DNA from: Escherichia coli
Lineage (GTDB): Bacteria > Pseudomonadota > Gammaproteobacteria > Enterobacterales > Enterobacteriaceae
Assembly: GCF_965641715.1 (NCBI RefSeq)
Contig: NZ_OZ282453.1
Length of the DNA: 64,000 nt
Direction: 5' to 3' (one strand)
Shown: positions 39,133 through 51,732 of the stretch, piece after piece
Numbering within the stretch: the first letter of the stretch is position 1
How the letters are laid out: each line of letters opens with the position of its first letter
The notes under the pieces: model-generated
The model's database searches: none
Seen by the model: the letters and a program-made list of their open reading frames with translations, nothing else
What the model was told of the DNA's origin: nothing
Position numbers and translations under genes: made by a program

Positions 39133-40532
39133 ACACTCGCCAGCTACTGAGCGTCGGTATCGATATCGGCACCACCACCACCCAGGTGATTTTCTCCCAC
39201 CTGGAACTGGTTAACCGTGCGGCGGTGTCGCAGGTGCCGCGCTACGAATTCATCAAACGCGAAATTAGCTGGCAAAGCCCGGTGTTCTTTACCCCTGTCG
39301 ATAAACAGGGTGGTTTAAAAGAAGCGGAACTGAAATCGCTGATTTTAGAGCAATATCAGGCTGCGGGCATTGCGCCGGAAAGCGTTGATTCTGGTGCCAT
39401 CATCATCACCGGTGAAAGCGCGAAAACCCGCAATGCTCGCCCGGCGGTGATGGCGCTCTCTCAGTCGCTGGGCGATTTTGTCGTCGCCAGCGCCGGGCCG
39501 CACCTCGAATCCGTGATCGCCGGTCACGGTGCCGGGGCGCAAACCCTTTCTGAACAACGGCTGTGTCGGGTACTGAATATCGACATCGGCGGTGGCACCG
39601 CGAACTACGCCCTGTTCGATGCCGGAAAAATCAGCGGCACTGCCTGCCTCAACGTCGGTGGTCGCCTGCTGGAAACCGACAGCCAGGGGCGCGTGGTTTA
39701 CGCTCATAAACCGGGGCAGATGATTGTGGATGAGTGCTTCGGCGCAGGCACCGATGCCCGTTCGCTGACCGGCGCGCAGCTGGTGCAGGTTACCCGGCGG
39801 ATGGCAGAGCTGATTGTCGAAGTGATTGACGGAACGCTTTCGCCGCTCGCGCAGGCATTAATGCAAACCGGTTTGCTGCCCGCAGGTGTTACGCCCGAAA
39901 TCATTACGCTTTCTGGCGGCGTGGGCGAATGTTATCGCCACCAGCCCGCCGACCCGTTCTGTTTTGCCGATATTGGCCCGCTTCTGGCAACGGCGCTGCA
40001 TGACCATCCGCGCCTGCGTGAGATGAACGTGCAGTTTCCGGCGCAAACCGTGCGCGCCACGGTGATTGGTGCGGGTGCACATACCCTTTCGCTCTCTGGC
40101 AGCACAATCTGGCTGGAGGGCGTACAACTGCCGCTGCGCAATTTGCCGGTGGCGATCCCAATTGATGAAACGGATCTGGTGGGTGCCTGGCAACAGGCGC
40201 TGATTCAGCTGGATCTTGATCCCAAAACTGACGCGTACGTGCTGGCGCTTCCCGCCTCGCTGCCTGTGCGTTACGCCGCGGTACTGACGGTCATCAACGC
40301 GTTGGTCGATTTCGTCGCGCGTTTTCCGAATCCGAATCCCCTGCTGGTGGTGGCCGGGCAGGACTTTGGTAAAGCTCTGGGCATGTTGTTGCGCCCACAG
40401 CTACAACAACTCCCGTTGGCAGTCATTGACGAAGTGATTGTCCGCGCGGGGGACTATATCGACATTGGTACGCCTCTTTTTGGCGGATCGGTTGTGCCGG
40501 TGACGGTGAAATCACTCGCATTTCCTTCCTGA
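39129..40532 (+). CDS. eutA: Ethanolamine ammonia-lyase reactivase EutA
   Basis: 467-aa ORF. 4-bp overlap with eutH. Its last 19 bp (40514..40532) coincide with the attL repeat of the inserted element. Confidence 0.9.
   Translation: MNTRQLLSVGIDIGTTTTQVIFSHLELVNRAAVSQVPRYEFIKREISWQSPVFFTPVDKQGGLKEAELKSLILEQYQAAGIAPESVDSGAIIITGESAKTRNARPAVMALSQSLGDFVVASAGPHLESVIAGHGAGAQTLSEQRLCRVLNIDIGGGTANYALFDAGKISGTACLNVGGRLLETDSQGRVVYAHKPGQMIVDECFGAGTDARSLTGAQLVQVTRRMAELIVEVIDGTLSPLAQALMQTGLLPAGVTPEIITLSGGVGECYRHQPADPFCFADIGPLLATALHDHPRLREMNVQFPAQTVRATVIGAGAHTLSLSGSTIWLEGVQLPLRNLPVAIPIDETDLVGAWQQALIQLDLDPKTDAYVLALPASLPVRYAAVLTVINALVDFVARFPNPNPLLVVAGQDFGKALGMLLRPQLQQLPLAVIDEVIVRAGDYIDIGTPLFGGSVVPVTVKSLAFPS
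40514..40532. repeat. attL-like direct repeat (ACTCGCATTTCCTTCCTGA), forming the present 3' end of eutA
   Basis: 13/19 identity, including the identical core CTTCCTGA, with attR at 51714..51732. Confidence 0.6.
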
Positions 40533-40627
40533 ATACTGTAGTTATCAGGCGTGGCGCTGGGTGGCTGGGTGTTAGTGGGATTATATCCGGCTGTGTATCC
40601 GGTCGGGGTGATTGGTCTGTATAGCAG

Positions 40628-40652
40628 AAAACCCGGCGCGGGGCCGGGTGAA
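40628..40652 (-). terminator. Rho-independent terminator after the element's 186-aa cargo gene
   Basis: Minus-strand RNA ACCCGGCcccgcGCCGGGTtttctg. The same hairpin recurs at 42316..42340. Confidence 0.6.
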
Positions 40653-40655
40653 CTA

Positions 40656-41216
40656 TCACTCAGGGAACAAGTTGATTTGAAGCAAACTGCCAATGTATTT
40701 ACCAGTGCTTTTAATTTTTCGCTTTGATGGCTTACACGAATTCAGGTTGACACCAGCCTGGCTAGATATTGGCTTGTATTGCCGCTCCGCCAGTACGATC
40801 AGGTCTGCCGCGTCTTTTAGCTTTCCATCGTTAGCCAGTTCCAATGCTCGATCCGCCATTTGCCCGCATTGTTGAATCAGCTTAAGTTGCGATACCTCCA
40901 GTCGCAATTGCTGGATTCGTTCTACCACTTTCGCCCTAATGCGCTTAGTTTCACGCATTCCCATTCTTAATGCCTGGTTGCCAGTAAGTGAGTAAACCTC
41001 TTTTTCTTTCCTGAAGTTTGCGGCTTTACCGTCAGCTTGGACGCGCATTTTATGCGCTTCCAAGAATTCGCCCTCCAATTCATCCCTGATCTTCGCGTTG
41101 AATCTGTCGTTCTTGAGTTCATTTAACCCTTCCGCCTTGCGGATCTGGTTGATTAACTCCAACAATTCATCACTGCGGATACGCCACTCGCTATCAACCT
41201 GTACCAAGTCAAACAT
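40656..41216 (-). CDS. Hypothetical coiled-coil protein (cargo gene A of the element)
   Basis: ORF 40656..41309. The internal start MFDLVQVDSEWRIRSDELLELINQ at 41216 has a GGGAG SD 5 nt upstream and is used here. No recognisable catalytic motif. Its 3' end abuts the attL side. Confidence 0.5.
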   Translation of the reverse strand: MFDLVQVDSEWRIRSDELLELINQIRKAEGLNELKNDRFNAKIRDELEGEFLEAHKMRVQADGKAANFRKEKEVYSLTGNQALRMGMRETKRIRAKVVERIQQLRLEVSQLKLIQQCGQMADRALELANDGKLKDAADLIVLAERQYKPISSQAGVNLNSCKPSKRKIKSTGKYIGSLLQINLFPE

Positions 41217-41380
41217 GTTGTTGCTCCCGTTTTGCTGCCATAGGGCAACGGCTCGCCAGCCTTTATCACCTCCTTTAGTTGTTGCGATTCTTAACTGAAT
41301 GGTTATCAAAACGCTGCGTTAATATCATTGATATGTATCAAATTTGTTTTGTGACGCGACAATGCCTTGTGAATATCAAT

Positions 41381-41410
41381 AAAAAACCCAGCGCTATGGC
41401 TGGGCTTCGT
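41381..41410 (-). terminator. Rho-independent terminator after the HTH regulator gene
   Basis: Minus-strand RNA GCCCAGCcataGCGCTGGGtttttt. Stop codon at 41438. Confidence 0.65.
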
Positions 41411-41413
41411 TTA

Positions 41414-41451
41414 ATGAGATGGGATTGAAAGCGGGTTTTATTTATCTCCCA
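41414..41451. promoter_or_regulatory. Operator-like site O1 (ATGAGATGGGA ... ATCTCCCA) upstream of cargo gene A
   Basis: Contains the reverse complement of the 11-mer TCCCATCTCAT found in O2, plus an ATCTCCCA half-site. Confidence 0.4.
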
Positions 41452-42220
41452 GATTGTATTCCCAGTTGGGAAGTAAAGTTATCAGCTTGTCACCTTTCTT
41501 GCCTTTGCCGATCTGGTTGCCGTTCTCGTCTTTCTTGTGTGTGATTTCCTGGTCAACCTTAATCAATCCTCTCTCTTTGGCTTGCTCAATCAGTCGGTAG
41601 AATGCGCCGTTACTAATCGGCTTCCGGTTACCGTCGTTATCCATCGCAGTGATTTTCTGTTGCAGTCCGGCGTTATTGCCCAGGTATTCGCCACCTAACG
41701 CCGCCAGTACCTGACACAACATGCCGACACTGTATTTTTTCGGATTTGGGTTAATCCATTCTTTAGCTCCCATCTCTTTTTTGTCGTTGGGCGCTTGTTC
41801 TGCTGCTACTGCGTTCACCTTTTCATCTCCCATCTTGTTACCGCTTGCTGTGCGCTTAATTTCTTCCAGTTCTCTCTCAAGCTCACCTATACGTAATTCA
41901 CGCTCGATAATTACCCCGCGCAGCACATCATCATCACCGTGAGGGCTTGCCTGAATCCAGTTACCATTGGCGAGCGGTAGGAGGGCATAAATTCCGAACA
42001 GGTCACAAAGCGCGGCAAGTGTATTAAAATCAGGTTCCCGGCGTCCCTCCATCCAGTGGCTAACAGCGCCTTTTGTGACTGGTTCGCCTTTCTTGCTTTT
42101 AACACCCATGCGATCCAGTGCGGCGGCTATCTCTTCGCATTTAATGCCACGACCGCCAGCATAGCCCGCCGCTTTCGCGGCCCCTTTGAGGATGTCGTGA
42201 ATTTTCATTTCGTAACTCAT
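41438..42220 (-). CDS. XRE-family helix-turn-helix transcriptional regulator with a ~190-aa C-terminal domain of unknown function (cargo gene B)
   Basis: ORF 41438..42235. Probable start MSYEMKIHDILKGAAKAAGYAGGRGIKCEEIAAALD... with GGAGA 7 nt upstream. The N-terminal 70 aa have the Cro/C1 HTH pattern. Confidence 0.6.
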   Translation of the reverse strand: MSYEMKIHDILKGAAKAAGYAGGRGIKCEEIAAALDRMGVKSKKGEPVTKGAVSHWMEGRREPDFNTLAALCDLFGIYALLPLANGNWIQASPHGDDDVLRGVIIERELRIGELERELEEIKRTASGNKMGDEKVNAVAAEQAPNDKKEMGAKEWINPNPKKYSVGMLCQVLAALGGEYLGNNAGLQQKITAMDNDGNRKPISNGAFYRLIEQAKERGLIKVDQEITHKKDENGNQIGKGKKGDKLITLLPNWEYNLGDK

Positions 42221-42226
42221 AATTTT

Positions 42227-42257
42227 ATCTCCCATCTCATGAACTATGGTGGGAGAT
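42227..42257. promoter_or_regulatory. Operator O2: perfect inverted repeat ATCTCCCA-N15-TGGGAGAT overlapping the SD and start of the HTH regulator gene
   Basis: Seen directly. A near-identical IR sits at 42935..42965 and a related site at 41414..41451. Probable autoregulatory site. Confidence 0.5.
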
Positions 42258-42315
42258 TAACACGGCGGGCCTGTGGCGGGTAAGTGTAACGGGAGAGAAT
42301 GTTGATTCAGGTCAC

Positions 42316-42340
42316 AAAAACCCGGCGCGGGGCCGGGCTG
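42316..42340 (-). terminator. Rho-independent terminator after the membrane-anchored cargo gene C
   Basis: Minus-strand RNA AGCCCGGCcccgcGCCGGGtttttgtg. Near-identical to the hairpin at 40628. Confidence 0.6.
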
Positions 42341-42359
42341 TGTTAGTACGTCGTTGCTC

Positions 42360-42836
42360 TTAGTTCATGAGGAGATCTTTAAATTCGACGCCGTATTCAT
42401 GGGCAATGTCGCCTCTATAGTAGATGTTATCTTTCAGGATATATCCGACGTTTCTCAGGACGTGAGAACACTCTCTTACTGCTGCCTCTTTACCCCTTAA
42501 AACATCCTCCCCGCTAACTTCTTCGCCGCTGTACTTCACTGCGATGTTGTCTGCTGCACGCTCTGCTGCTTCCAGGCAATTAATCTTCACTTTTCCCCGA
42601 TTCTCCCAGGCAAAATCGCGGCCATAAATCCCCATTGCATCAACCATCTTTTGCGCAGTAGTGCGCTCATCCACCCATTCAGTGCGTTCGAACTTCTCGC
42701 CAGCAGCTACCCTTGCCGCCAGTTGTTCGTGTTGAGTCTGTACGGCCGCAGCCTCTTCTTCCCATTTGCCTTGCTCGTTGTATACGATGAAGCCAGTGAT
42801 GACTGCAGCGATTAGTAACTTGTCCAGAAAATTCAT
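42360..42836 (-). CDS. Hypothetical protein with a single N-terminal transmembrane helix (cargo gene C)
   Basis: 158 aa, MNFLDKLLIAAVITGFIVYNEQ then a soluble Glu/Ala-rich domain. SD-like sequence upstream. No family recognised. Confidence 0.5.
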   Translation of the reverse strand: MNFLDKLLIAAVITGFIVYNEQGKWEEEAAAVQTQHEQLAARVAAGEKFERTEWVDERTTAQKMVDAMGIYGRDFAWENRGKVKINCLEAAERAADNIAVKYSGEEVSGEDVLRGKEAAVRECSHVLRNVGYILKDNIYYRGDIAHEYGVEFKDLLMN

Positions 42837-42934
42837 AGCTTCCTCCTATCTGTTCAATTACCCGGCATCTCTTGCCGTTGAACGTATTAAACAAAATGCC
42901 AGTCAGGGATAAAGCGATCTGCGTCATAAAGTCC

Positions 42935-42965
42935 ATCCCCCATCTCATTGATATTGATGGGAGAT
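42935..42965. promoter_or_regulatory. Operator O3: inverted repeat ATCCCCCA-N15-TGGGAGAT about 100 bp upstream of cargo gene C
   Basis: Same half-sites and same spacer start (TCTCAT) as O2. Confidence 0.45.
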
Positions 42966-43056
42966 TGTTTAATTGGTCAGAAATTAAGCGTTTATGTGCG
43001 CTGCCGGGTATCCACCTCCTATCTGAAGATGGAAAGATGGGTGATATAATGTGATG

Positions 43057-43120
43057 GCAATTGGTGGATTGCGTGGTTTTTACAATGATAAGGGGCTGGC
43101 GTAATGCTGGCCCCTTTGTT
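43057..43120 (+). ncRNA. Candidate small RNA (extended -10 promoter to plus-strand-specific terminator)
   Basis: TGaTATAAT at 43042..43050. Hairpin GGGGCUGGC-guaau-GCUGGCCCC + UUUGUUU at 43091..43120 pairs, with two G-U wobbles, only in the plus-strand transcript. No convincing ORF. Confidence 0.25.
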
Positions 43121-43170
43121 TATCCGGTATCCGGTATCCGGTATAAGCGGGCGTGTATCCGGTAGCGGGG
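43121..43170. repeat. Tandem heptamer repeat (CCGGTAT x3.5) followed by GTGTATCCGGTAGCGGGG
   Basis: Seen directly. A related GTGTATCCGGTCGGGG lies at 40593..40608 near attL. Confidence 0.6.
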
Positions 43171-43356
43171 ATATGGGCGCGTGTACGTGAAATCTGGCAA
43201 ATTAGCAGGGTAATTGTGAGGGAATTTTTGCGTAGGAGCGTTTGTGGCTGGTAGCTCAAAATTGAGCTTTGCTTTTCATTCAATGACTTAGGTTAATTCT
43301 AGCAAAACGCTAGGATTGAATGTCCGCCAGTCTGCTTCCCCTAGCGTGGGATTTGG

Positions 43357-45723
43357 TCAACGTCTGCGCGGCTGCAAAATTCCTCCGGGTCGTTGTGATT
43401 CACGCTGCATCAGTCGCATCGCTGTGTTTTCTATGGTCTGCTGCAGCGCTTTTGAGTCTTCCTCTGTCCAGCCGTTGTTAGCCTGGATGTTGAACGTATT
43501 GTTCATCGTGATTCCGCCACCGCCTACCAGATCGCGGCCCGGTGTAACTCGTCCACCTTCACCCGGGATCATGTACTGTTTCCCGCCAGTGGATGTAAAT
43601 AGCTCCGGTACTCCGTGCTCCCCGACCCTATAAAGATTGCCACCGTTAACAGCCCCGCCGTTGTAACGAGCGCCAGCCAGTCCAAGCGTTTTGGCGGCAG
43701 CTACGCCAGTAGTAAGCCCGGTAAGTCCAGTGGCCCCAGCGCCGCCCATCGTGGCTACGTTAGCCAGGTATGCAGGAGTGGCCCACGCCGATCCTAATGC
43801 TGTAGCCTCTGCTAGTGCTTTAGCTGTTGCGGCTGCGTTTGCGGCTTCACCAATTAGCTGCTGTTTAACCCACTCAGCACCCATCTGGACAATGCCACCG
43901 ACCACAGAAGACAGGATCGTACTGCCAACGTTGGCAAGTGACTCTTGCAGCGATTGAGTACCGTTTATCAGTCCGGTAAATGCGCTGCCAGCGCCAGACG
44001 ATAACCCATCGACCATATTCCCGATGAGGCCATTTATATCGCTTTGTTTCTTCCACTGCTGCCACTGGAGATCCAGAACCCTTTGTTCATGTGCGATCTC
44101 TTCCTGGCGCAACTGCTCTTCGGTAGCCCCAAGATCTAGAAGCATTTGCTTGCGAACAGCCCATTCATTTTGGATCTTCTGTATTGGGTCAATCTGAGCT
44201 TTCTGCTTATCCTGCTCACTGACAAGACTGTCCCATTTCGCTTTCTGCTTGCGGATGGCTTCAGCTTCATCAATTGCTGCGAGTGTACTTGCTCGCTGTT
44301 TCGCGCTGATCAACCGTTTCTGCTCAGCCGCTTCCAGGTCTTCTACTGCTTTTTTCCGTTTATTGAGCGCCGCTAGTTCGGGATCGTATTTTTCCACCAA
44401 TGAAAGGCCGCTTGCTTCCTTACGTTCGCGTTCTCTTTGTGCCTGTTTGGCTGCCTGCTTAGCGGCGTTTTCTGCTTGTTTGGCTGCTCTTTCTTTCGCC
44501 CTGGTGTTCTCTTCTTCCTTGCGCTTATTCTCTTCTAACTCCTTGTTTTGTTCGCGTAATTTAACGATTTCCTCATGATGCGCCTTTGTCAGCTGGCCTT
44601 CTTTCAGTGCCCGATCTATATCAGCGTTTGCGTTGCCTTTTAGCTGTTCCTGTTTAACTTGCAGATGTTTAATCATCATTTCGCCAGTGGCAATCGCTGC
44701 CGCAGACGCTCCAGCATTCAGAGCTTCATTTAACGCTCTCTGACGTTCTTCTGCTGTTAATGCCTCGTTGCTGTATCGAAGTAGCGCATCAACGTATTTC
44801 TCCAGTTCTGCGCGGCCTGCCGCAGTTGCTGGTTCCATTGCTTTTAGGATGCTCAGAAGGCTTTGCGCTTCATAGGAAGACGGGTTTTTGCGGAACTGCG
44901 CCATAGCGTTATAAAGCGCCATAGCTTCACCCTCTGTGATTCTGTACTTAGCTCCCAGCCCTTCAATGACCGCTGATAACTGTTTGCCAAGCGCTGCACC
45001 GAATGCGCCTTCCTTGCTTAATTTGTTGAGCACTTCACTCAGTGAATTTCCTGACACGCCCAGCGCGTCGAGTTCTCTTGCTACCGTTCCCAGGTCGCCG
45101 CCTTTCATCCATCCTGCATTAGAAAATTCAGTGATAGCCCGGCCCGCTTCCCGCGTTTCTTCCTGGAGTGTTTTTAGCGCCCGCACGGCCTGCTCTTTCA
45201 TTACGGCGGCGGCAATGGCGTTGTTCTGTGTGGCTTCGTAATATGAATCACTGAAAGCGTTAACGCCCTGGGTGGATTTGCCGATCACGGCGTCGATTGA
45301 TGCTAATGCCTCCTTCATCCTTTCAGCGCTATCCGTTGCGTCGTCCATGCTGTCCGTTAGGCTGTTGGCAATCGCCCCGCCAATAGCCATCACCGCCCCC
45401 ATGACCGCACCGCCAGTACCGAAGGCAGCGGCAAGTTGTGCACCCTGCACAGCGAACGCCTGGAGCGCATTACCGCCCATCTGCAATTGAGTGGCAAGGT
45501 CTGCGATCTGGTATGATGCGTTACGGATTGCCGGGGAAAGGTTGGTTTTGACTGCGGCAGACGTTTTGGTCATCTGCGTGTTCAGTTTTTTGACGCCACT
45601 GTCAGCGCGTTTTGCGCCGCGTTCTATACTGTCAAAAGCCTGGTCCGCTTCTTGTTGTGCTGCCAGGAGTTTACCAGTACGGGCGTCGACCTCATAGTAT
45701 ATGGTCCCAAGATTCCCACTCAT
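43357..45723 (-). CDS. Tape-measure-like large coiled-coil protein (lambda-H-type C-terminal region), orphan
   Basis: 788 aa with an Ala/Glu/Lys/Gln-rich heptad-like central region (EENKRKEEENTRAKERAAKQAENAAKQ...). Gly-rich C-terminus with LYRVGEHGVPELF, the 'VGExGPELF' signature recalled for lambda-family tape-measure C-terminal domains. No neighbouring tail genes. Confidence 0.6.
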   Translation of the reverse strand: MSGNLGTIYYEVDARTGKLLAAQQEADQAFDSIERGAKRADSGVKKLNTQMTKTSAAVKTNLSPAIRNASYQIADLATQLQMGGNALQAFAVQGAQLAAAFGTGGAVMGAVMAIGGAIANSLTDSMDDATDSAERMKEALASIDAVIGKSTQGVNAFSDSYYEATQNNAIAAAVMKEQAVRALKTLQEETREAGRAITEFSNAGWMKGGDLGTVARELDALGVSGNSLSEVLNKLSKEGAFGAALGKQLSAVIEGLGAKYRITEGEAMALYNAMAQFRKNPSSYEAQSLLSILKAMEPATAAGRAELEKYVDALLRYSNEALTAEERQRALNEALNAGASAAAIATGEMMIKHLQVKQEQLKGNANADIDRALKEGQLTKAHHEEIVKLREQNKELEENKRKEEENTRAKERAAKQAENAAKQAAKQAQRERERKEASGLSLVEKYDPELAALNKRKKAVEDLEAAEQKRLISAKQRASTLAAIDEAEAIRKQKAKWDSLVSEQDKQKAQIDPIQKIQNEWAVRKQMLLDLGATEEQLRQEEIAHEQRVLDLQWQQWKKQSDINGLIGNMVDGLSSGAGSAFTGLINGTQSLQESLANVGSTILSSVVGGIVQMGAEWVKQQLIGEAANAAATAKALAEATALGSAWATPAYLANVATMGGAGATGLTGLTTGVAAAKTLGLAGARYNGGAVNGGNLYRVGEHGVPELFTSTGGKQYMIPGEGGRVTPGRDLVGGGGITMNNTFNIQANNGWTEEDSKALQQTIENTAMRLMQRESQRPGGILQPRRR

Positions 45724-46012
45724 AATATCTTTATCCGCGTTGTGCGGACACCTCCGATTATTCTTTACTCTAATAATTTCACAATGAAACAGTTTATTGC
45801 CGCTTCAGTGGCTTCGTGTTCCGGTTTGCTTCGATCAATCACAAAAAATACAGCTTAATAGAATCAATGGCTTATAAAGTTGTATTAGCTATGTTTCTTC
45901 GTCCGTGCCACTGAAAACCCAGTTTTTCCAATGGAATCAATACTGATATGTATCCATACTGTTTTTCACATAATGTACGTTATGCGCACTACGGGAAACG
46001 TACTGAATTTAT

Positions 46013-46243
46013 TTACTGGTCGCCGTTCAGTTCATGCAGAGTCTGTTCTGGCAATGAATCCAGCCAGTTTTCTGCATCCTCCCTGTAACACTCCAGGATG
46101 CAACGGTTTGTGAAGTTGATGAAAGCGGTCAGTGATTCTGCTTCGTCGTTCCTGTGCGTTCTCCTGGCGTGCTTGCGTAGTCGTTTCGCGTCTGCCAGTT
46201 GGTCATTGAGTATCTTCAGTCTGTCGGCAATATCATCGTTCAT
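46013..46243 (-). CDS. Hypothetical small protein (76 aa)
   Basis: ORF co-oriented with the element's genes. 290-bp non-coding gap before the tape-measure-like gene. No motif recognised. Confidence 0.35.
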   Translation of the reverse strand: MNDDIADRLKILNDQLADAKRLRKHARRTHRNDEAESLTAFINFTNRCILECYREDAENWLDSLPEQTLHELNGDQ

Positions 46244-46430
46244 GTCGTCTCTCCCTCGCGCGCGCGTCGTACTTGTCCGAAAATTACCCCCATAAAAGCG
46301 CCCCTCATATAGTGCAAAATCCCGGCTGACGCGGATCTCAGTGGGTTTTAGCAGTGAAAACTGACATCAAAAACGGCTCGCTAAGGTCCGCTAAGTATCC
46401 GCTATCGTTCGCTAACCCCCCGCTAACCTA

Positions 46431-46796
46431 TTAGATATCGCATCCAACGCTATTGAGCTGGCTATGTATATCGGCGCGAATTAACTTCAGGCGTTTACAA
46501 AATTCGCGTTCTTCCGAATTAAGCTCGCGGCCACCTTGTTTCGAGGCAATGAGCTTGTTGATGGTGGAAAGCGAATATTCACTCCATATACGAAGCATTT
46601 GTCGCTTCATTGGTTGCTCGCTCAATGGTGAGTTTTTCAGGTCTGACACGCGCTCTGCGACGGTTCTTGCGATGCCTTGTACCACTCGTAGTGCCAACAT
46701 GATGATTTTCTCCGGACTTGTGCTAATATAGTTCCCGAACATTGTTTCGAGACTGCTTATCCTGTTTGTCTTGTCCGATTTGTTCATTGGTCGCAT
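46431..46796 (-). CDS. Hypothetical protein (121 aa)
   Basis: Co-oriented ORF in the compact gene array 46431..47993. No family recognised. Confidence 0.45.
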   Translation of the reverse strand: MRPMNKSDKTNRISSLETMFGNYISTSPEKIIMLALRVVQGIARTVAERVSDLKNSPLSEQPMKRQMLRIWSEYSLSTINKLIASKQGGRELNSEEREFCKRLKLIRADIHSQLNSVGCDI

Positions 46797-46838
46797 TGTT
46801 AAGTCAGCCGGGGTAATTCCCGGCTTTCTTTTATCCGA

Positions 46839-47381
46839 TCAGTACCGAATCCCTATCGCATTGAATACGCGTTTCCGTTGCTCAGCTTCAGGATCGGCGG
46901 CCATTTCTGGTTCTGGCTCCGGCATAGACGGGGCGGCATCAAAATGCTCAATTTCACGACCGAAATACGAGTTCAGGTCAATACCTGCCGAACTATCCAC
47001 TCCATCAAAATAGCGACGCTGTTCCTCGGTGAGACAGCTACCCAGACGTTCCTCAACCTGCGCCATAAACTCAGCATCCGGTGAGAAGTACTCATCCGGA
47101 GTCGGAGCACCGCTCTGTTTGTGCATCTCCATTTTCTCTGCGTTCGTTTTCAGCCCGGCAATGCGTTTCTCCAGTCCGGCGGCTTTAATAGCGTCAGCAA
47201 CGATTTGTGGGATCTGCGGTTTAATTATTTCGATAACTTCATTGCTGATTAATTTAAACTGGGCCATACGGATCGCTTTAATCTGCTTATTTAACAGTGC
47301 GCGTTCCCCTTCGTTGGCGGTTTTATCACGCTGTGCTACCAGTTCATCGCCTTTGTTTGTCAGTACATCAAATGCGTCCAT
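46839..47381 (-). CDS. Hypothetical phage-like protein (180 aa, acidic C-terminus)
   Basis: Co-oriented ORF. C-terminus PEPEPEMAADPEAEQ. Possible packaging or scaffold-type function, assigned by position only. Confidence 0.45.
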   Translation of the reverse strand: MDAFDVLTNKGDELVAQRDKTANEGERALLNKQIKAIRMAQFKLISNEVIEIIKPQIPQIVADAIKAAGLEKRIAGLKTNAEKMEMHKQSGAPTPDEYFSPDAEFMAQVEERLGSCLTEEQRRYFDGVDSSAGIDLNSYFGREIEHFDAAPSMPEPEPEMAADPEAEQRKRVFNAIGIRY

Positions 47382-47398
47382 TGTCTTTCCTCCTCCGA

Positions 47399-47725
47399 TT
47401 ATTTAAAAGTGCTTATTGACACGCCGAAACGACGACTTAATTCAAAAAGGAGTCGCGCCTTTGCAGTGCCTTCCATGTCTTCCGGCATTTCAGACTGAAG
47501 TTTATCAGCTACTTCATCAACAAGTGGCCGAACCGTTTCCACGAACTTGTCCGCAATATAATCAGCAGAACGCATCACTTTTTCCTGGAATTCCTCACGG
47601 CGTACCTGGGCGGCTGATTTAGGGGCTGTCGTGCGCTGAAAATAACTGTCTAATGAATGCATGGCATCTGCTCCTTTTACTTTGATTGCTGTTATTTCTT
47701 TAATTGTGTTTGCTTTGATTTTCAT
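47399..47725 (-). CDS. Hypothetical protein with a C-terminal HTH-like segment (108 aa)
   Basis: C-terminal ...AKARLLFELSRRFGVSISTFK resembles a DNA-binding helix-turn-helix. Confidence 0.4.
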   Translation of the reverse strand: MKIKANTIKEITAIKVKGADAMHSLDSYFQRTTAPKSAAQVRREEFQEKVMRSADYIADKFVETVRPLVDEVADKLQSEMPEDMEGTAKARLLFELSRRFGVSISTFK

Positions 47726-47801
47726 GCTGCCTATTCCTTCAGAAATTGCGGTAGTTTGCTTTTTAAATCAATAAGTTATTTGATAATCTCAGTAGCTGTT
47801 T

Positions 47802-47993
47802 TCATTGGTGGCGAGCGCCTTTGTTTTTATAGAATTCCAAAATCTCAGATCGGATAAACTTAATTCTTGAGCCAATCGGACTGACCGGGACGGGCCAGCC
47901 TTTAATCTTGTTCATCCACCGGAATATTGTCCGACGGGTAACGCCGAATAAAGCTGCTACCTCGTTAACCGTCATTAATTCGCTATCATTCAT
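47802..47993 (-). CDS. alpA: AlpA-family prophage transcriptional regulator / excisionase-like protein
   Basis: 63 aa, MTVNEVAALFGVTRRTIFRWMNKIKGWPVPVSPIGSRIKFIRSEILEF, the classic AlpA (MerR-type wHTH) pattern found next to P4-type integrases. Confidence 0.75.
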   Translation of the reverse strand: MNDSELMTVNEVAALFGVTRRTIFRWMNKIKGWPVPVSPIGSRIKFIRSEILEFYKNKGARHQ

Positions 47994-49116
47994 GTTCTCA
48001 CCTCAAAAAGTAGCGGTGAGGAAAATATGGAGAAAACCCTCACCGCGCCCTGAATGAAATTAAAGACCAACATTACTGTTGATACTTATTATTATATTCC
48101 TCCTGTCCCTGTTTCACATCTTTTACCATATAGTGAAAGGGGATATTCTGTAATGTTTACAAAACTTTTAATTAGCAAAAAATAATTGCGCATCTCACGT
48201 AATGCAGGGATAATATTACTCAAGGGCTGGTTGCCCTTACTCAAAATGTGATCTATAACTACAACGATCTATTTCACTTCCCCGCTTTCTCCGGCGGGAT
48301 TTTTTTGCCTGCAATCTGGCACCATTGCGCACATTAAAATTAGATGCCATTTAAAAGCGATATAACGCGTTCTGCCGGGCTTAATTTTGGCTATCCACTT
48401 GGAAGGGTAAGCCTGTTTTGATTCGTCTGGCGTGGAATGGTGCGGCGGTAATATCAGATCTCAGCGTTCTGCGTGGTGGGATGAAATAGCCTGGCAGGAT
48501 TTGCGTGTGGTTTGCTCTCCCAAAAAATGGGGTAATGGCGCTGGCTGGATGGCAGGACTCCGCGCTGATTACTGGATGGCTGAAAATTTAATGAAATCGC
48601 ATCAATTTTAATGCGTCTAAATCGCTCTGTGGCGACGTGAAGTTTTCAGGTAAGCAAGTGTAGCTGTGTGGTGTGTTCATCGCGTTACTGGCACCATTCC
48701 GTTCGAATTTGGCGCTATCAGGATGGTTTGCGGTGGTCGGCGGCGGGGATAAACTTGCTTGAGTGGTCACCTCAGCCTGCTGTGCGTCGTGTGATGGTAC
48801 TGTCTGCACCTGGCTATACGCTGCTTTGCTGCTGTTTCCTGTCTGGTCTGTATACGCGATAAAACCCATCGGCTTTACAGTGAGTGAGTTTTTTGCGCTT
48901 TGCTTTCCATTCGGTTTGCTTACTGCTGCTGTGTGTCTGTGCGGTAGCTCAGAAAGCTGTCGATGATAACCATCACTGCCAGACCGTCTTTTGAGCTGGC
49001 GATTGCTCGAAGTCTTCCGAAGGTCCGCTGGGCTTGTTGCTTGTTTGTGTTCTTTTAAAATGCGCGCCTCTTACTTTCTCTTAAAAAGAAAAAAGGAATA
49101 TACAGATCTCATACTA

Positions 49117-49274
49117 TGTGTGTCCCAAATGTCACACGTCATGGCCTGACCTGTATCCCAAATGTCACACGTCACCCTCTGACCTGTATCCCAAATGTCA
49201 CACGTACCTGTGTCCCAAATGTCACACGTCTATTGTTAATTAATTGTTGACCTGTGTCTCAAATGTCACACGTC
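49117..49274. repeat. Iteron array: 5 direct copies of ~22-bp CTGT(G/A)TCCCAAATGTCACACGTC with an AT-rich tract (49231..49250) before the last copy; putative replication origin
   Basis: Copies start near 49119, 49151, 49186, 49208 and 49252. Directly downstream of the Rep-like gene. Confidence 0.75.
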
Positions 49275-49338
49275 TGTTGATGGTTTAAGTAATAAAAAGG
49301 GCCACCATTTTAGGTGACCCATTGATGCGTTTTAGTCG

Positions 49339-50103
49339 TTATCTTGCGTTCTCGACCTGAAAAAGCATTCTGTATTTTCTTGCGTGCTGACCAATAACAT
49401 ATTCCCCGTATGGCTCAATGAGTCCTAACTCAACCAGGATTTTCATCTGGCGAATTACGGTGCGGCGATTCATGCCCCATTCATCAGCTATTTTTGCCTG
49501 GCAAACTTCAGATACATAAGATCCATCATTCTGCTTTCTTGCTGCTGATGCAATGCTGGATAATACGCTCCAGGCTGTAGCTTTAGCTTTATTCTCGCAA
49601 CCACTTCTGACAAATGCCTTACGTGCCGCACCCAAACAGACATAACTGCAATAAATTCCTTTTTCTTCCGTTTGGTATTGTGTCTCTTTATCCTGCATGG
49701 CTTCCGGTTCTTCCGGCGCTTCCTGCTGTGGTGCTGTCTGCGAAGTTTTAGCGGCCATACTGCGTAGCTCGTTCACGATATCAGTAGCTGATTTCTTCTC
49801 GCTTTTAGTTTCCTGCGTGACTGATAAATACTCACCTTGTAACGCCAGGAAGTCAGCGCGGGCGTTTGCCTGGCTTTGTTCTGGTGATTCAGGTTCTGCA
49901 TCGGCAGGTGATGAAATCGGTGATACACGCGCCCAGCCTGTTTTGGCGTTGCATTCCCAGCGATAACCATTAAAGCGGATATCATTCAGGCCATCATCAA
50001 TGGCGCTCCGTACTTCTTCCGGGATCGCGTCGATTTTCTGAAGGCTGTGTTTACCGAGTGATTCGCCTTGCCGTGGGGCGTAGGCGGTTGGTAAAATATT
50101 CAT
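49339..50103 (-). CDS. Putative replication initiator / iteron-binding protein with a C-terminal winged-HTH
   Basis: 254 aa. C-terminal ...KIADEWGMNRRTVIRQMKILVELGLIEPYGEYV is a wHTH. Adjacent to the iterons. Acidic low-complexity middle region. Confidence 0.55.
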   Translation of the reverse strand: MNILPTAYAPRQGESLGKHSLQKIDAIPEEVRSAIDDGLNDIRFNGYRWECNAKTGWARVSPISSPADAEPESPEQSQANARADFLALQGEYLSVTQETKSEKKSATDIVNELRSMAAKTSQTAPQQEAPEEPEAMQDKETQYQTEEKGIYCSYVCLGAARKAFVRSGCENKAKATAWSVLSSIASAARKQNDGSYVSEVCQAKIADEWGMNRRTVIRQMKILVELGLIEPYGEYVIGQHARKYRMLFQVENAR

Positions 50104-50349
50104 GTGGGATTTCTCCTTTTTACTTGTTTCCCATATCGCCCGGATTGGTTAGCGGCCTTCCGGGCTTTTTGTTGCGTTGATCCTATTTTCGATCCCCGGA
50201 TTTTTTATTACAAACTTGGCTTAATCATTGATTTTATTGGTATAGCTGTATAAAAGGATAACAGGATAAAAGGGTGATAGATTGTGTAACCTGTTAACCT
50301 TTTATACCAGTAAGGCGAAAGAAAAGCCGGACGAATCCGGCCTTATAGT

Positions 50350-51555
50350 TCACGGCTCCAGCGGATTACCGCCACCAGCCAATATCTGGTCGATGGCGTC
50401 GCTGTAGTCCTGCATCATGGCCCGCCGTTGCTTCAGATAGGCCGCCTGGTTATAAACGCCGCGCACACCTTTCGGAACGTGGGCCAGTTGGATTTCGATC
50501 CAGTCTGGTGAGTATCTGCCGTACTCGTTAAGTGCGGTTGAAAAGGTGGTTCGCCAGCCGTGACCAGTGGCTATCGACTTGTATCCGATACGCTCCAGGG
50601 CTTTAAGGATGGCACTGGCTGAAAGTGGCTTATCCATGAATCGACCAGGGAACACAAAAGCACTGTATCCGCTGCGGGTAAACTGGTCCTGTAATAGCTC
50701 GACCGCCTGCCGGGATAGCGGGACCACATGCGGGCGGCGGGCCTTCATGACTTCAGCGGGTAGGGTGATGGTTGCCGATTCCAGATCTACCCACTCCCAG
50801 CGCATTAAACGCAGTTCTGCGGTCCTTAGGGCGCTTAATATAAGCAAACGTATTGCCGTCTGAATCTGAACGCTCCCGGCTCTCTCAAGGGCTTTGTAGA
50901 AGGCCGGGATTTCGTTAATTTGTATCCATGCGTTATGGCCTGGGCGTCGGGCTTTCAATGCCGTGTCCAGATCTGCAACCGGATTTCGGTTAACCAGTTC
51001 AGTGATAACGGCAAATTTGAAGATTTCCCCTATACGCTGCCGTAATTTTCGGGCCTGTTCCGGCGCGGTGCGCTCTTTCTTCTGAAGCAATGCCAGCACG
51101 TCACGGGCCGTTATATCGACAATCGACCGCTTGCCAAGTACCGGATAAACATCTTTCTCCAGTGCCGATCTAACTTGTTTCGTGTAAGACTCAGACCAAC
51201 CGCTCACTCTGGTAGCAAACCAGTCTTCCGCTACCGTCTTAAAACTTGCCGCCATGTTGAGCGCATCAATGGCTTTCTCCTTGCGCGCTTCTTCCATTGG
51301 GTCAATTCCCTGGGCGATGAGTAAACGGCTCTCTGTGGCGCGTTTACGTGCTTCCTTCAAGGTAATCAGCGGATATACCCCAATAGCCTGTAACCGCTCT
51401 TTCTTGTCTATCCAGTACCGGAATCGCCAGTATTTGCTGCCATTGGGATGTACCAGCAAGAACAGGCCAGGTGTCTGTGAATCGGTGAGTTTGTAGGGCT
51501 TGTCCTTCGGCTGGGCGGCCTCTATGCCCTTTGCTGTCAGTGGTGTCTTGCTCAA
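50350..51555 (-). CDS. intZ: Tyrosine recombinase/integrase, P4 family (IntZ-like)
   Basis: 401 aa. N-terminal arm-binding region MSKTPLTAKGIEAAQPKDKPYKLTDSQTPGLFLLVHPNGSKYWRFRY and C-terminal catalytic region with ...HGWRTTFSTALNE...LAHV...Y. Adjacent to eutB as intZ is in K-12. Confidence 0.85.
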   Translation of the reverse strand: MSKTPLTAKGIEAAQPKDKPYKLTDSQTPGLFLLVHPNGSKYWRFRYWIDKKERLQAIGVYPLITLKEARKRATESRLLIAQGIDPMEEARKEKAIDALNMAASFKTVAEDWFATRVSGWSESYTKQVRSALEKDVYPVLGKRSIVDITARDVLALLQKKERTAPEQARKLRQRIGEIFKFAVITELVNRNPVADLDTALKARRPGHNAWIQINEIPAFYKALERAGSVQIQTAIRLLILSALRTAELRLMRWEWVDLESATITLPAEVMKARRPHVVPLSRQAVELLQDQFTRSGYSAFVFPGRFMDKPLSASAILKALERIGYKSIATGHGWRTTFSTALNEYGRYSPDWIEIQLAHVPKGVRGVYNQAAYLKQRRAMMQDYSDAIDQILAGGGNPLEP

Positions 51556-51713
51556 AACCGGATACCTCGATCTAACGACTCGATAACCCCGCTCATGTAT
51601 CCGTCGCGTTCGGTTGCGTTCGGCAGGATAAGTAACGGGCGTATTAAGTGGAACACCTTACAGGACAAGGGATAACGATGAAATAGAATTGTTCGAATGC
51701 TGTGAAAAATGTT

Positions 51714-51732
51714 ACTCATCACTTCTTCCTGA
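51714..51732. repeat. attR-like direct repeat (ACTCATCACTTCTTCCTGA), remnant of the ancestral eutA 3' end directly upstream of the eutB RBS
   Basis: Partner of 40514..40532. 130 bp downstream of the integrase gene. Confidence 0.6.

Follow-up and report, generated by a model that had tools for sequence, protein, structure and literature searches.

Replication from arrays of short direct repeats (iterons), recognized by an initiator encoded beside them, is familiar from plasmids and phages. Classical iteron plasmids, represented by pSC101 (RepA), R6K (pi), F (RepE) and pPS10 (RepA), combine phased direct repeats of ~22 bp, in arrays of variable copy number, with DnaA boxes and an AT-rich unwinding region, while their initiators contain a WH1-WH2 pair of winged helices and usually repress their own synthesis via an inverted half-iteron. 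In phage lambda, the O protein unites a variable, iteron-binding winged helix at its N-terminus with a conserved part responsible for helicase-loader recruitment; the O gene itself contains the iterons, and relatives swap specificity cassettes by recombination. Here, we examine a locus in a 64-kb stretch of Escherichia coli DNA (hereafter the window, to whose numbering all unprefixed positions refer) in which the gene for a 254-residue protein (49339-50103, minus strand, with an ATG start and an AAGGAG ribosome-binding site) is followed by five direct repeats. Judging from comparative sequence evidence, this gene and its repeats are probably the replication module, initiator plus origin, of the 11.2-kb CPZ-55-type island in which they reside.

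Integrated mobile elements provide the other close precedents. The origin of SGI1, which has been shown experimentally, comprises four iterons, a DnaA box and AT-rich flanks directly downstream of rep, and the island replicates only after excision and activation by a helper (PMC7433901). An origin immediately 3' of rep has also been proven experimentally for the phage-inducible chromosomal islands (PICIs) of E. coli (PMC6092414) and for the RepA of PLE (PMC7145576). In its workings the module described here resembles iteron theta replicons as well as the rep-ori modules found in PICIs, SGI1 and PLE, and its protein stands outside all of their families. As a class of mechanism, Rep plus iterons is well known, so that our findings extend an established principle and do not introduce a new one. 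What appears to be novel, from the sequences compared, is a family of initiators not described before, whose specificity cassette can be exchanged and which occurs in small E. coli elements both integrated and as a free plasmid. The literature on CPZ-55 satellites, yffL and satellites with a tape measure yielded no earlier description of the module.

An initial annotation of the window had pointed to five direct repeats beside the 254-residue open reading frame (ORF), and a pattern search confirms them. The pattern CTGTRTCCCAAATGTCACACGT has exactly five matches in the whole window, all on one strand (49118-49139, 49151-49172, 49184-49205, 49208-49229 and 49252-49273), against a chance expectation of zero in 100 dinucleotide-preserving shuffles. 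In the reading direction of the gene, each repeat measures 25 nucleotides, GACGTGTGACATTTGGGAYACAGGT, and the array, which starts ~65 bp past the stop codon, spans 49116-49274. Its members, all on the minus strand, are iteron 1 (gene-proximal, 49250-49274, GACGTGTGACATTTGAGACACAGGT), which has no counterpart in 4-copy alleles, iteron 2 (49206-49230, GACGTGTGACATTTGGGACACAGGT), iteron 3 (49182-49206, TACGTGTGACATTTGGGATACAGGT), which abuts iteron 2 at 24-bp spacing, iteron 4 (49149-49173, GACGTGTGACATTTGGGATACAGGT) and the distal iteron 5 (49116-49140, GACGTGTGACATTTGGGACACACAT). Start-to-start distances from the gene-proximal to the distal end are 44, 24, 33 and 33 bp, which departs from the regular spacing of ~22-35 bp first reported; taken from the distal end, 33/33/24/44 bp amounts to approximately 3, 3, 2 and 4 helical turns. 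An iteron origin typically presents at least three direct repeats of the same orientation in helical phase, and the window array presents five.

Each window iteron is also semi-palindromic, with arms ACGTGT and ACAGGT flanking an A/T-rich centre, GACATTTGGGAT. Among the related loci, cited below by our own numbers, the iteron of L011 forms a perfect 7-bp inverted repeat about ACACCAGAAA, and the corresponding element in L004 is CCAAATTTGG. Semi-palindromic direct-repeat iterons around an A-rich centre, as found here, are part of the published description of the RepA_N family (PMC7145576). Copy number is polymorphic between strains, with four, five or six iterons. The short-read contigs of L007, L008 and L010 end ~110-140 bp past the stop codon of the gene, within the repeat array. 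Repeat arrays commonly break short-read assemblies.

The link between protein and repeats is suggested by their co-variation. Loci were fetched for each type of C-terminal domain and the region downstream of the gene was inspected. The family alignment shows several unrelated winged-helix sequence types attached to an N-terminal part and linker that are conserved and contain the motifs MNILPTAYAxxQGE and KSEKKSAxDIVNELRSKAAAKTSQ, and every locus type carries its own direct-repeat array at the same place. The window iteron recurs in L015 (five copies) and L017 (four copies), whose C-terminal domains are 98% and 76% identical to that of the window, and in these islands the recognition helix is nearly unchanged. 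At 70% identity, in L011 and L012, the repeat is GACCCCTGACACCAGAAACAGGGGT, present five times. Domains less than 25% identical to the window's are accompanied by unrelated iterons: AACTCGTTATCATTCTGAGCAC in six copies, followed by three AT-rich 14-15-mers, in L003 (18% identical); CACCCCCACCAAATTTGGGCTAC in L004-L008 (24% for L004), with four copies in L004-L006 and three visible in L007 before the contig end; AGACCCCCACCAAAAATTGGCTAC in two copies in L009 and L010 (22% for L009); and AGGTGGGTCAAAAGTTGCCG in two copies in L002 (24%), where the protein is of the YffL type.

With the window's own type and the YffL type counted, the repeats track the C-terminal winged-helix type across seven specificity classes. 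They do not track the integrase, the insertion site or the N-terminal part of the protein, the last being 85-86% identical in L009 and L003 though the iterons differ. In P0010, a family member whose N-terminus is window-like, the C-terminus and the repeats are both of the P0030 type. Because the type of repeat co-varies with the C-terminal domain, the repeats are most simply read as the cognate sites of that domain, and the array would accordingly adjoin an initiator gene whose predicted binding specificity matches the iterons. The L011/L012 alleles are instructive in this respect: five of 13 recognition-helix residues and three wing residues differ from the window, and the array geometry is 45/24/33/33 as compared with 44/24/33/33 in the window, despite the different iteron. 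Since both helix and iteron have changed in L011 while the geometry has been kept, selection for the protein-iteron interaction is indicated.

These comparisons also bear on the proposal that the repeats serve recombination or packaging, either as arm-type integrase sites of the attachment region or as a pac/cos-like array for a small terminase. The integrase does possess an arm-binding domain (Arm-DNA-bind_3), and relatives encode small terminases of the Sf6 type. However, a distance of ~2.4 kb separates the repeats from the end of the island next to int, they are wholly different in islands that share an insertion site and have integrases of 94-96% identity (across five iteron types), and they follow the C-terminal domain of the 254-residue protein and neither the terminase nor the integrase. 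Pfam and PHROG scans, moreover, reveal no recognisable small terminase in the window island. We regard such a role as extremely improbable.

Around the array, the anatomy expected of a replication origin is conserved. All compared loci have the same order: stop codon, intrinsic terminator, iterons, a tract of 70-78% AT and a GC-rich piece. In the window, the terminator of the 254-residue gene (49299-49320, minus strand; GGGTCACC..GGTGGCCC followed by TTTTTATT) separates the stop codon from the repeats, and an equivalent hairpin and T-run are found at the same place in all related loci that were laid out. Beyond the distal iteron, an AT-rich tract at 49060-49117, present in every allele and followed by a short GC-rich GGCGCGC, is the candidate DNA-unwinding element. 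Its segment 49068-49117, which adjoins the iterons, is 74% AT and falls within the top 0.9% of the island's 50-nucleotide windows; the tract as a whole ranks fourth among 60-bp stretches for low stability, ~2.8 standard deviations above the mean. The position is conserved among relatives, with a tract of 70-78% AT at the same post-iteron place in L003, L004, L009, L011 and L013. The AT-rich tract to which attention had originally been drawn, before the last copy, is a different one. It does exist, at 49231-49250 (TATTGTTAATTAATTGTTGA, 85% AT), between iteron 1 and iterons 2-5, and is kept in the 5-copy and 6-copy alleles and in L011, but the three 4-copy alleles examined have neither the gene-proximal iteron nor this spacer, and since it is missing from them it is not a core element.

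As far as the sequences tell, the exchangeable unit is the winged-helix coding part together with the terminator, the repeats and the AT tract, flanked upstream by the conserved N-terminal coding region. Its downstream edge may be marked by a conserved non-coding block of ~45-55 nucleotides (48972-49026, minus strand; GGACCTTCGGAAGAC..GCCAGC..GGTCTGGCAG), which lies ~90 nucleotides beyond the AT-rich tract and is kept in all specificity types, that of YffL included (L002, L003, L009, L011, L015 and L017). Its possible roles include anchoring the recombination by which cassettes are exchanged, serving in priming or as the site of a host factor, and acting in a promoter. A structured RNA was considered and rejected: the consensus fold is weak, RNAalifold giving -8 kcal/mol with an unfavourable covariation term of +1.5, and there is no Rfam match.

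The 254-residue protein falls into two parts: residues 1 to ~145 constitute the family-conserved N-terminal part and an acidic, Q-rich linker, and residues ~150-250 a winged helix with its recognition helix at 213-225 (RRTVIRQMKILVE). A C-terminal winged helix-turn-helix, as initially annotated, finds support in matches of HTH_36 and HTH_Crp_2 to residues 180-235, below the Pfam cut-offs, and in an AlphaFold model based on a 24-sequence alignment, in which residues 150-250 form a winged helix with a pLDDT of 74-90 (whole-model mean, 58). The protein belongs to no described Rep family. NCBIfam gives no match, and PHROG families named 'replication initiation protein' match it weakly (E about 1e-3). 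Close homologues are confined to Escherichia, nearly all of them E. coli, and in related islands the annotation goes no further than hypothetical or helix-turn-helix protein. A search of 50,697 phage records gave no match to the protein, and no relatives were found in IMG/VR contigs or GTDB species-representative genomes. A profile search of 1.84 billion representative proteins returned 552 matches, mostly via the winged helix. Among 121 distant relatives scanned, 119 are HTH_36 proteins, and co-matches include DnaD_N (51), RP-C (42), RepL (15) and Phage_rep_O (10), along with general regulator families. Remote homology therefore leans towards the replication class, without being decisive.

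A free plasmid supplies a further line of evidence. When 72,556 plasmids were searched with tblastn, the domain was detected in two records, NZ_CP062859.1 and NZ_CP062904.1 (L013 and L014), which are one 8,009-bp E. coli sequence with rotated start points and zero mismatches, and from this it follows that the molecule is circular. Neither of the two complete genomes that hold this plasmid has a chromosomal copy. The plasmid encodes an AlpA protein and small ORFs homologous to those of the islands and in the same order, a small serine recombinase, an XRE regulator and a small-terminase-like fragment (phrog_1482, 7e-15); it has neither integrase nor tape measure. Its 195-residue homologue is 42% identical to the window protein over the winged helix, including the motif IYCSYVCLGA, and no other recognisable replication protein is encoded there. 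Downstream of the 195-residue gene, one small overlapping ORF and a terminator are followed by a perfect DnaA box (TTATCCACA), by six iterons that recur every 22 bp, by a tract of 78% AT whose tail is GC-rich and, last, by a second perfect DnaA box in inverted orientation. On this reading of the sequence, the layout is textbook iteron plasmid origin anatomy and the homologous module is the only candidate replicon of the plasmid. The typing shown with the plasmid record gives a mobility class and no replicon type. Tandem 12-bp units with GATGTAAC occur inside and just after the XRE gene, and single GATGTAAC copies upstream of it. Taken together, the co-variation of repeat and domain, the conserved anatomy and the homologous module on a free plasmid uphold the original suggestion of an iteron-type origin next to a Rep-like protein.

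Several observations weigh against this assignment. The protein matches no curated Rep family at threshold (no RepA_N, Rep_3, RepA_C or Phage_rep_O), and it has a single winged helix in place of the tandem WH1-WH2 pair of classical iteron initiators. Its N-terminal 148 residues are modelled with low confidence and have no known relatives. Foldseek searches against the PDB return generic winged helices (CodY, ArsR/CadC, MarR, CRP) and TubR with E about 0.02-0.1; the predicted fold therefore does not discriminate between functions. The entry 4pql, which we take to be the N-terminal domain of a plasmid RepA, comes no higher than rank 46 (E=0.11), and sequence and profile searches of the PDB gave only CRP/MarR-type helices with E of 0.09 or worse. 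No match to TTWTNCACA was found near the window array, and the 740 nucleotides past the window gene contain nothing that comes within one mismatch of the DnaA box TTATCCACA; one-mismatch boxes do occur between the terminator and the first iteron in L004 and L011. A partial iteron is likewise lacking at the promoter of the 254-residue gene, where no 10-of-12 match was detected except a weak one at the ribosome-binding site. The plasmid homologue differs from the window protein in its N-terminal part, and because of this difference the replication competence of the plasmid need not transfer to the window protein. Finally, the window allele, which has matches in 102 of 5,426 complete E. coli genomes (~2%; 68 of them hold at least 80% of the module), is always chromosomal in those 102.

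The predominance of winged-helix regulators (CodY, ArsR, MarR, CRP) among the fold and profile matches raises the possibility that the 254-residue protein regulates island transcription as a repressor or roadblock, in functional analogy to a PICI master repressor or immunity protein, with the array as a multi-site operator blocking or controlling transcription from the int side into the alpA-led operon. A weak promoter-like site (49126-49097, minus strand) overlaps the last repeat and the AT-rich tract, and co-variation of protein and repeats would prove cognate binding, not replication. The arrangement of the locus argues otherwise. The gene's terminator comes before the array, and alpA is ~1.1 kb farther downstream, past a variable cargo slot; promoter-like sites are not enriched (six found, 5.4 expected in shuffled sequence); and in the plasmid relative two perfect DnaA boxes and an AT-rich tract enclose the array, in a molecule that needs a replicon which nothing else supplies. 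Separate regulators and operators exist as well, namely an inverted repeat upstream of the gene and, on the plasmid, the XRE protein with its GATGTAAC repeats. A purely regulatory function is, in our estimation, distinctly unlikely.

The upstream inverted repeat consists of 21-nucleotide arms (50248-50268 and 50287-50307, 90% complementary) between the int terminator and the 254-residue gene. It is kept in L009 and L011 regardless of iteron type, and L003 and L004 carry a different inverted repeat in its place. Two conserved GATC sites come after it. That it might be the operator of the Rep-like protein itself was ruled out, as it is common to islands with different iterons; since it does not vary with iteron type, a separate regulator presumably binds there, and the element is probably a candidate operator of some other regulator.

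Phased direct repeats beside a small DNA-binding protein also mark type II and type III partition loci, and TubR is among the top Foldseek matches (3m8f and 3m8e, E about 0.02-0.03). The repeats might accordingly be a centromere of the parC/tubC kind, and the protein a ParR/TubR-like adaptor that stabilises the excised circle. Against this, scans of both the island and the 8-kb plasmid gave no NTPase of the ParA, ParM or TubZ type, the flanking DnaA boxes and AT-rich tract are features of origins and not of centromeres, and the plasmid would be left with no replicon. We consider a partition function very improbable.

A different question is whether an origin by anatomy is still an origin in practice, or an inactive relic of a plasmid- or satellite-like ancestor within a grounded cryptic island. 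CPZ-55 has been regarded as a prophage that is cryptic and grounded (PMC6379469). The window origin lacks a DnaA box, ~1.1 kb with no convincing ORF adjoins the origin (the equivalent stretch in strain J3 is a frameshifted pseudogene), and the K-12-type YffL allele retains only two repeats. Other observations speak against a relic: the ORF is intact, with 98%-identical relatives and one cluster of 130 member sequences; the iterons of L015, whose aligned island DNA is ~81-91% identical to that of the window, are nearly unchanged (one base in one copy); and in L011 the recognition helix and the iteron have both changed with the array geometry kept. That the module is a mere fossil seems unlikely.

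If the 254-residue gene and its repeats are indeed an initiator and its origin, the following mechanism may be envisaged. The C-terminal winged helix would bind each 25-bp semi-palindromic iteron, probably as a dimer, and because the iterons are spaced ~2-4 helical turns apart, the bound proteins would share roughly one face of the DNA. The resulting phased nucleoprotein array would distort the DNA and destabilise or open the adjoining AT-rich tract at 49060-49117. The conserved N-terminal part and acidic linker might then recruit the helicase and replisome, which would have to come from the host (DnaB/DnaC, joined by DnaA in the relatives whose origins have DnaA boxes) or from a helper phage, as the protein has no helicase or primase domain. 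In the integrated state the gene would presumably be kept low via the operator-like inverted repeat at 50248-50307, and the origin would be expected to fire after excision, as in SGI1, PICIs and PLE. Because the island carries both an initiator-like protein and its own repeat array, it could probably copy itself once excised; the window's own copy may be active in this way.

The host island (40533-51724) is inserted between the stop codon of eutA and the start of eutB and is bounded by 8-bp direct repeats, CTTCCTGA, of which the left copy (40525-40532, plus strand) overlaps the eutA stop codon and the right copy (51725-51732, plus strand) lies just upstream of the eutB start. The CPZ-55 element of K-12 has the same site and the same target duplication (TCAGGAAG on the other strand; PMC6379469). 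All ORFs taken as island genes are on the minus strand. The order begins with a 401-residue IntZ-type tyrosine integrase (50350-51555, minus strand; Pfam Arm-DNA-bind_3 1.5e-24, Phage_int_M 1.2e-29, Phage_integrase 5.3e-21), annotated intZ in related E. coli genomes, and continues with the 254-residue gene and repeats, the ~1.1 kb with no convincing ORF and the gene for a 63-residue HTH_17 or excisionase/AlpA-like protein (47802-47993, minus strand; Pfam HTH_17 7e-9, phrog_66 excisionase/regulator 1.7e-9). Thereafter come several small ORFs with no matches, a full-length 788-residue tape-measure homologue (43357-45723, minus strand; phrog_1538 8e-112, Pfam TMP_2 weak) and three more ORFs. The tape-measure homologue is 52-60% identical, over aligned parts, to tape measures of coliphages of the mEp021/mEpimmI group. 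These phages may be helpers, or the island may have captured a tail gene. Among the 50,697 phage records, none matched the nucleotide sequence of the int-to-alpA half (45724-51700).

The region from the origin to the alpA-like gene (47994-49060) is a variable cargo slot, which in other strains holds a YafO-type toxin or unrelated ORFs of 145-206 residues (L003 7826-8446, L004 6888-7325, L005 7135-7614, L006 7654-8109). HNH endonuclease genes adjoin the alpA-like gene in several relatives. A 93-residue ORF at 48588-48869 was considered as a remnant of the 206-residue cargo gene of L003 and showed no similarity to it. The closest relative in a complete genome (L001 10203-12123, E. coli USDA-ARS-USMARC-49610; 99.3% identity) is missing both the integrase N-terminus and the eutB N-terminus, and because this deletion spans the right junction, the L001 island is locked in place and eutB inactivated. 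The 12,008-bp contig of L015 was considered as an excised circle and excluded, as it has short eutB and eutA flanks at its ends and no terminal overlap.

Among described systems, SGI1 resembles this locus in being an integrated island with int at one end and with rep followed by a terminator and a four-iteron origin with AT-rich flanks; an HTH_17 protein is found in the neighbourhood as well. It differs in that its Rep is a plasmid initiator of the RepA_C type and its helper a conjugative plasmid, whereas the window protein is of an undescribed family with a single C-terminal winged helix and the window origin has no DnaA box.

The comparison with Gram-negative PICIs and their pri-rep-ori modules, recommended at the outset, proved to be one of analogy only. 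Like EcCICFT073, a ~10-kb PICI with int at one end, one direction of transcription and an AlpA-like helix-turn-helix protein (PMC6092414), the window island has a terminal int, unidirectional genes, a specific attachment site with its 8-bp repeats and, at 11.2 kb, a length within the ~8-20 kb of PICIs. Both also place the origin just 3' to the initiator gene, with an AT-rich stretch flanked by iterons, and both occur in several allelic rep/ori specificities within E. coli. Pri-Rep, however, is a primase/helicase-type protein, and the 254-residue protein has neither domain; indeed no primase or helicase domain was found in the 11 island proteins (all by Pfam, subsets by PHROGs and NCBIfam). In the window island, furthermore, rep precedes alpA, and a full-length tape-measure homologue is present, whereas PICIs have no structural tail or lysis genes. 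Having a tape-measure gene and no Pri-Rep, the island is not a canonical PICI. As to the AlpA member of the satellite-type gene set initially proposed, the 63-residue protein matches HTH_17, and its match to PF05930 Phage_AlpA is weak (E=0.029, below the cut-off). A PICI-like satellite is, by analogy, a live hypothesis.

By function, PLE RepA and lambda O appear to be the closest precedents. PLE RepA, a RepA_N protein of Vibrio cholerae, is likewise a satellite-encoded initiator with no helicase or primase that borrows helicase and replisome, and its DnaD-N-like winged helix binds semi-palindromic iterons with A-rich centres (PMC7145576); window iterons are also semi-palindromic, and distant relatives of the window domain often co-match DnaD_N. 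The window protein, in contrast, has no PF06970 match at E<=0.1 and carries its DNA-binding domain at the C-terminus, where RepA_N has it at the N-terminus; host and island backbone differ too. Lambda O shares the two-part construction of the initiator, and 10 of the 121 remote relatives of the window domain co-match Phage_rep_O, but the island encodes no P-like partner and the window protein has no PF04492 match. With the classical iteron plasmids, the module shares phased repeats, an AT-rich tract, variable copy number and, in the 8-kb plasmid relative, DnaA boxes; it differs in its single winged helix and in having no iteron-like operator at the promoter.

The family probably extends to K-12. 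In the K-12-type CPZ-55 element of E. coli J3, the uncharacterised y-gene product YffL (L002 10955-11596, minus strand) occupies the position of the 254-residue protein, as it does in K-12-type elements generally. Its linker is homologous to that of the window protein (E=4e-7), there is a weak profile match in the register of the winged helix (hhalign E=5e-4, probability 32%), and two 23-bp direct repeats (L002 10858-10903) lie downstream of yffL. From these sequence comparisons, YffL of K-12 probably represents the same initiator-origin module in an allelic form that has diverged or is decaying.

Should these assignments hold, a function would be provided for a family now annotated as hypothetical or HTH domain-containing proteins, which this allele alone places in ~2% of complete E. 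coli genomes, and K-12 YffL would probably be covered too. Plasmid and island typing schemes would gain an untyped replicon family, and the CPZ-55-type 'grounded prophages' of the eut operon would be recast as potentially excisable, self-replicating elements. More tentatively, and in our view less likely than not, CPZ-55-type elements, including CPZ-55 and yffL of K-12, might be an unrecognised family of small E. coli hitchhikers that exist integrated by a tyrosine integrase at eut or other sites or as free plasmids such as the 8-kb circle. They would replicate by a helicase-less initiator in which a conserved recruiting module is coupled to an exchangeable winged-helix/iteron cassette, and would be transferred via siphophages of the mEp021 group; as satellites they would then supply a tape measure of their own, and some relatives a small terminase as well. 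The natural allele series, in which the geometry is the same while helix and iteron have changed, would offer a ready system for studying the evolution of initiator-origin specificity, and several compatible origins for engineering could be derived from it.

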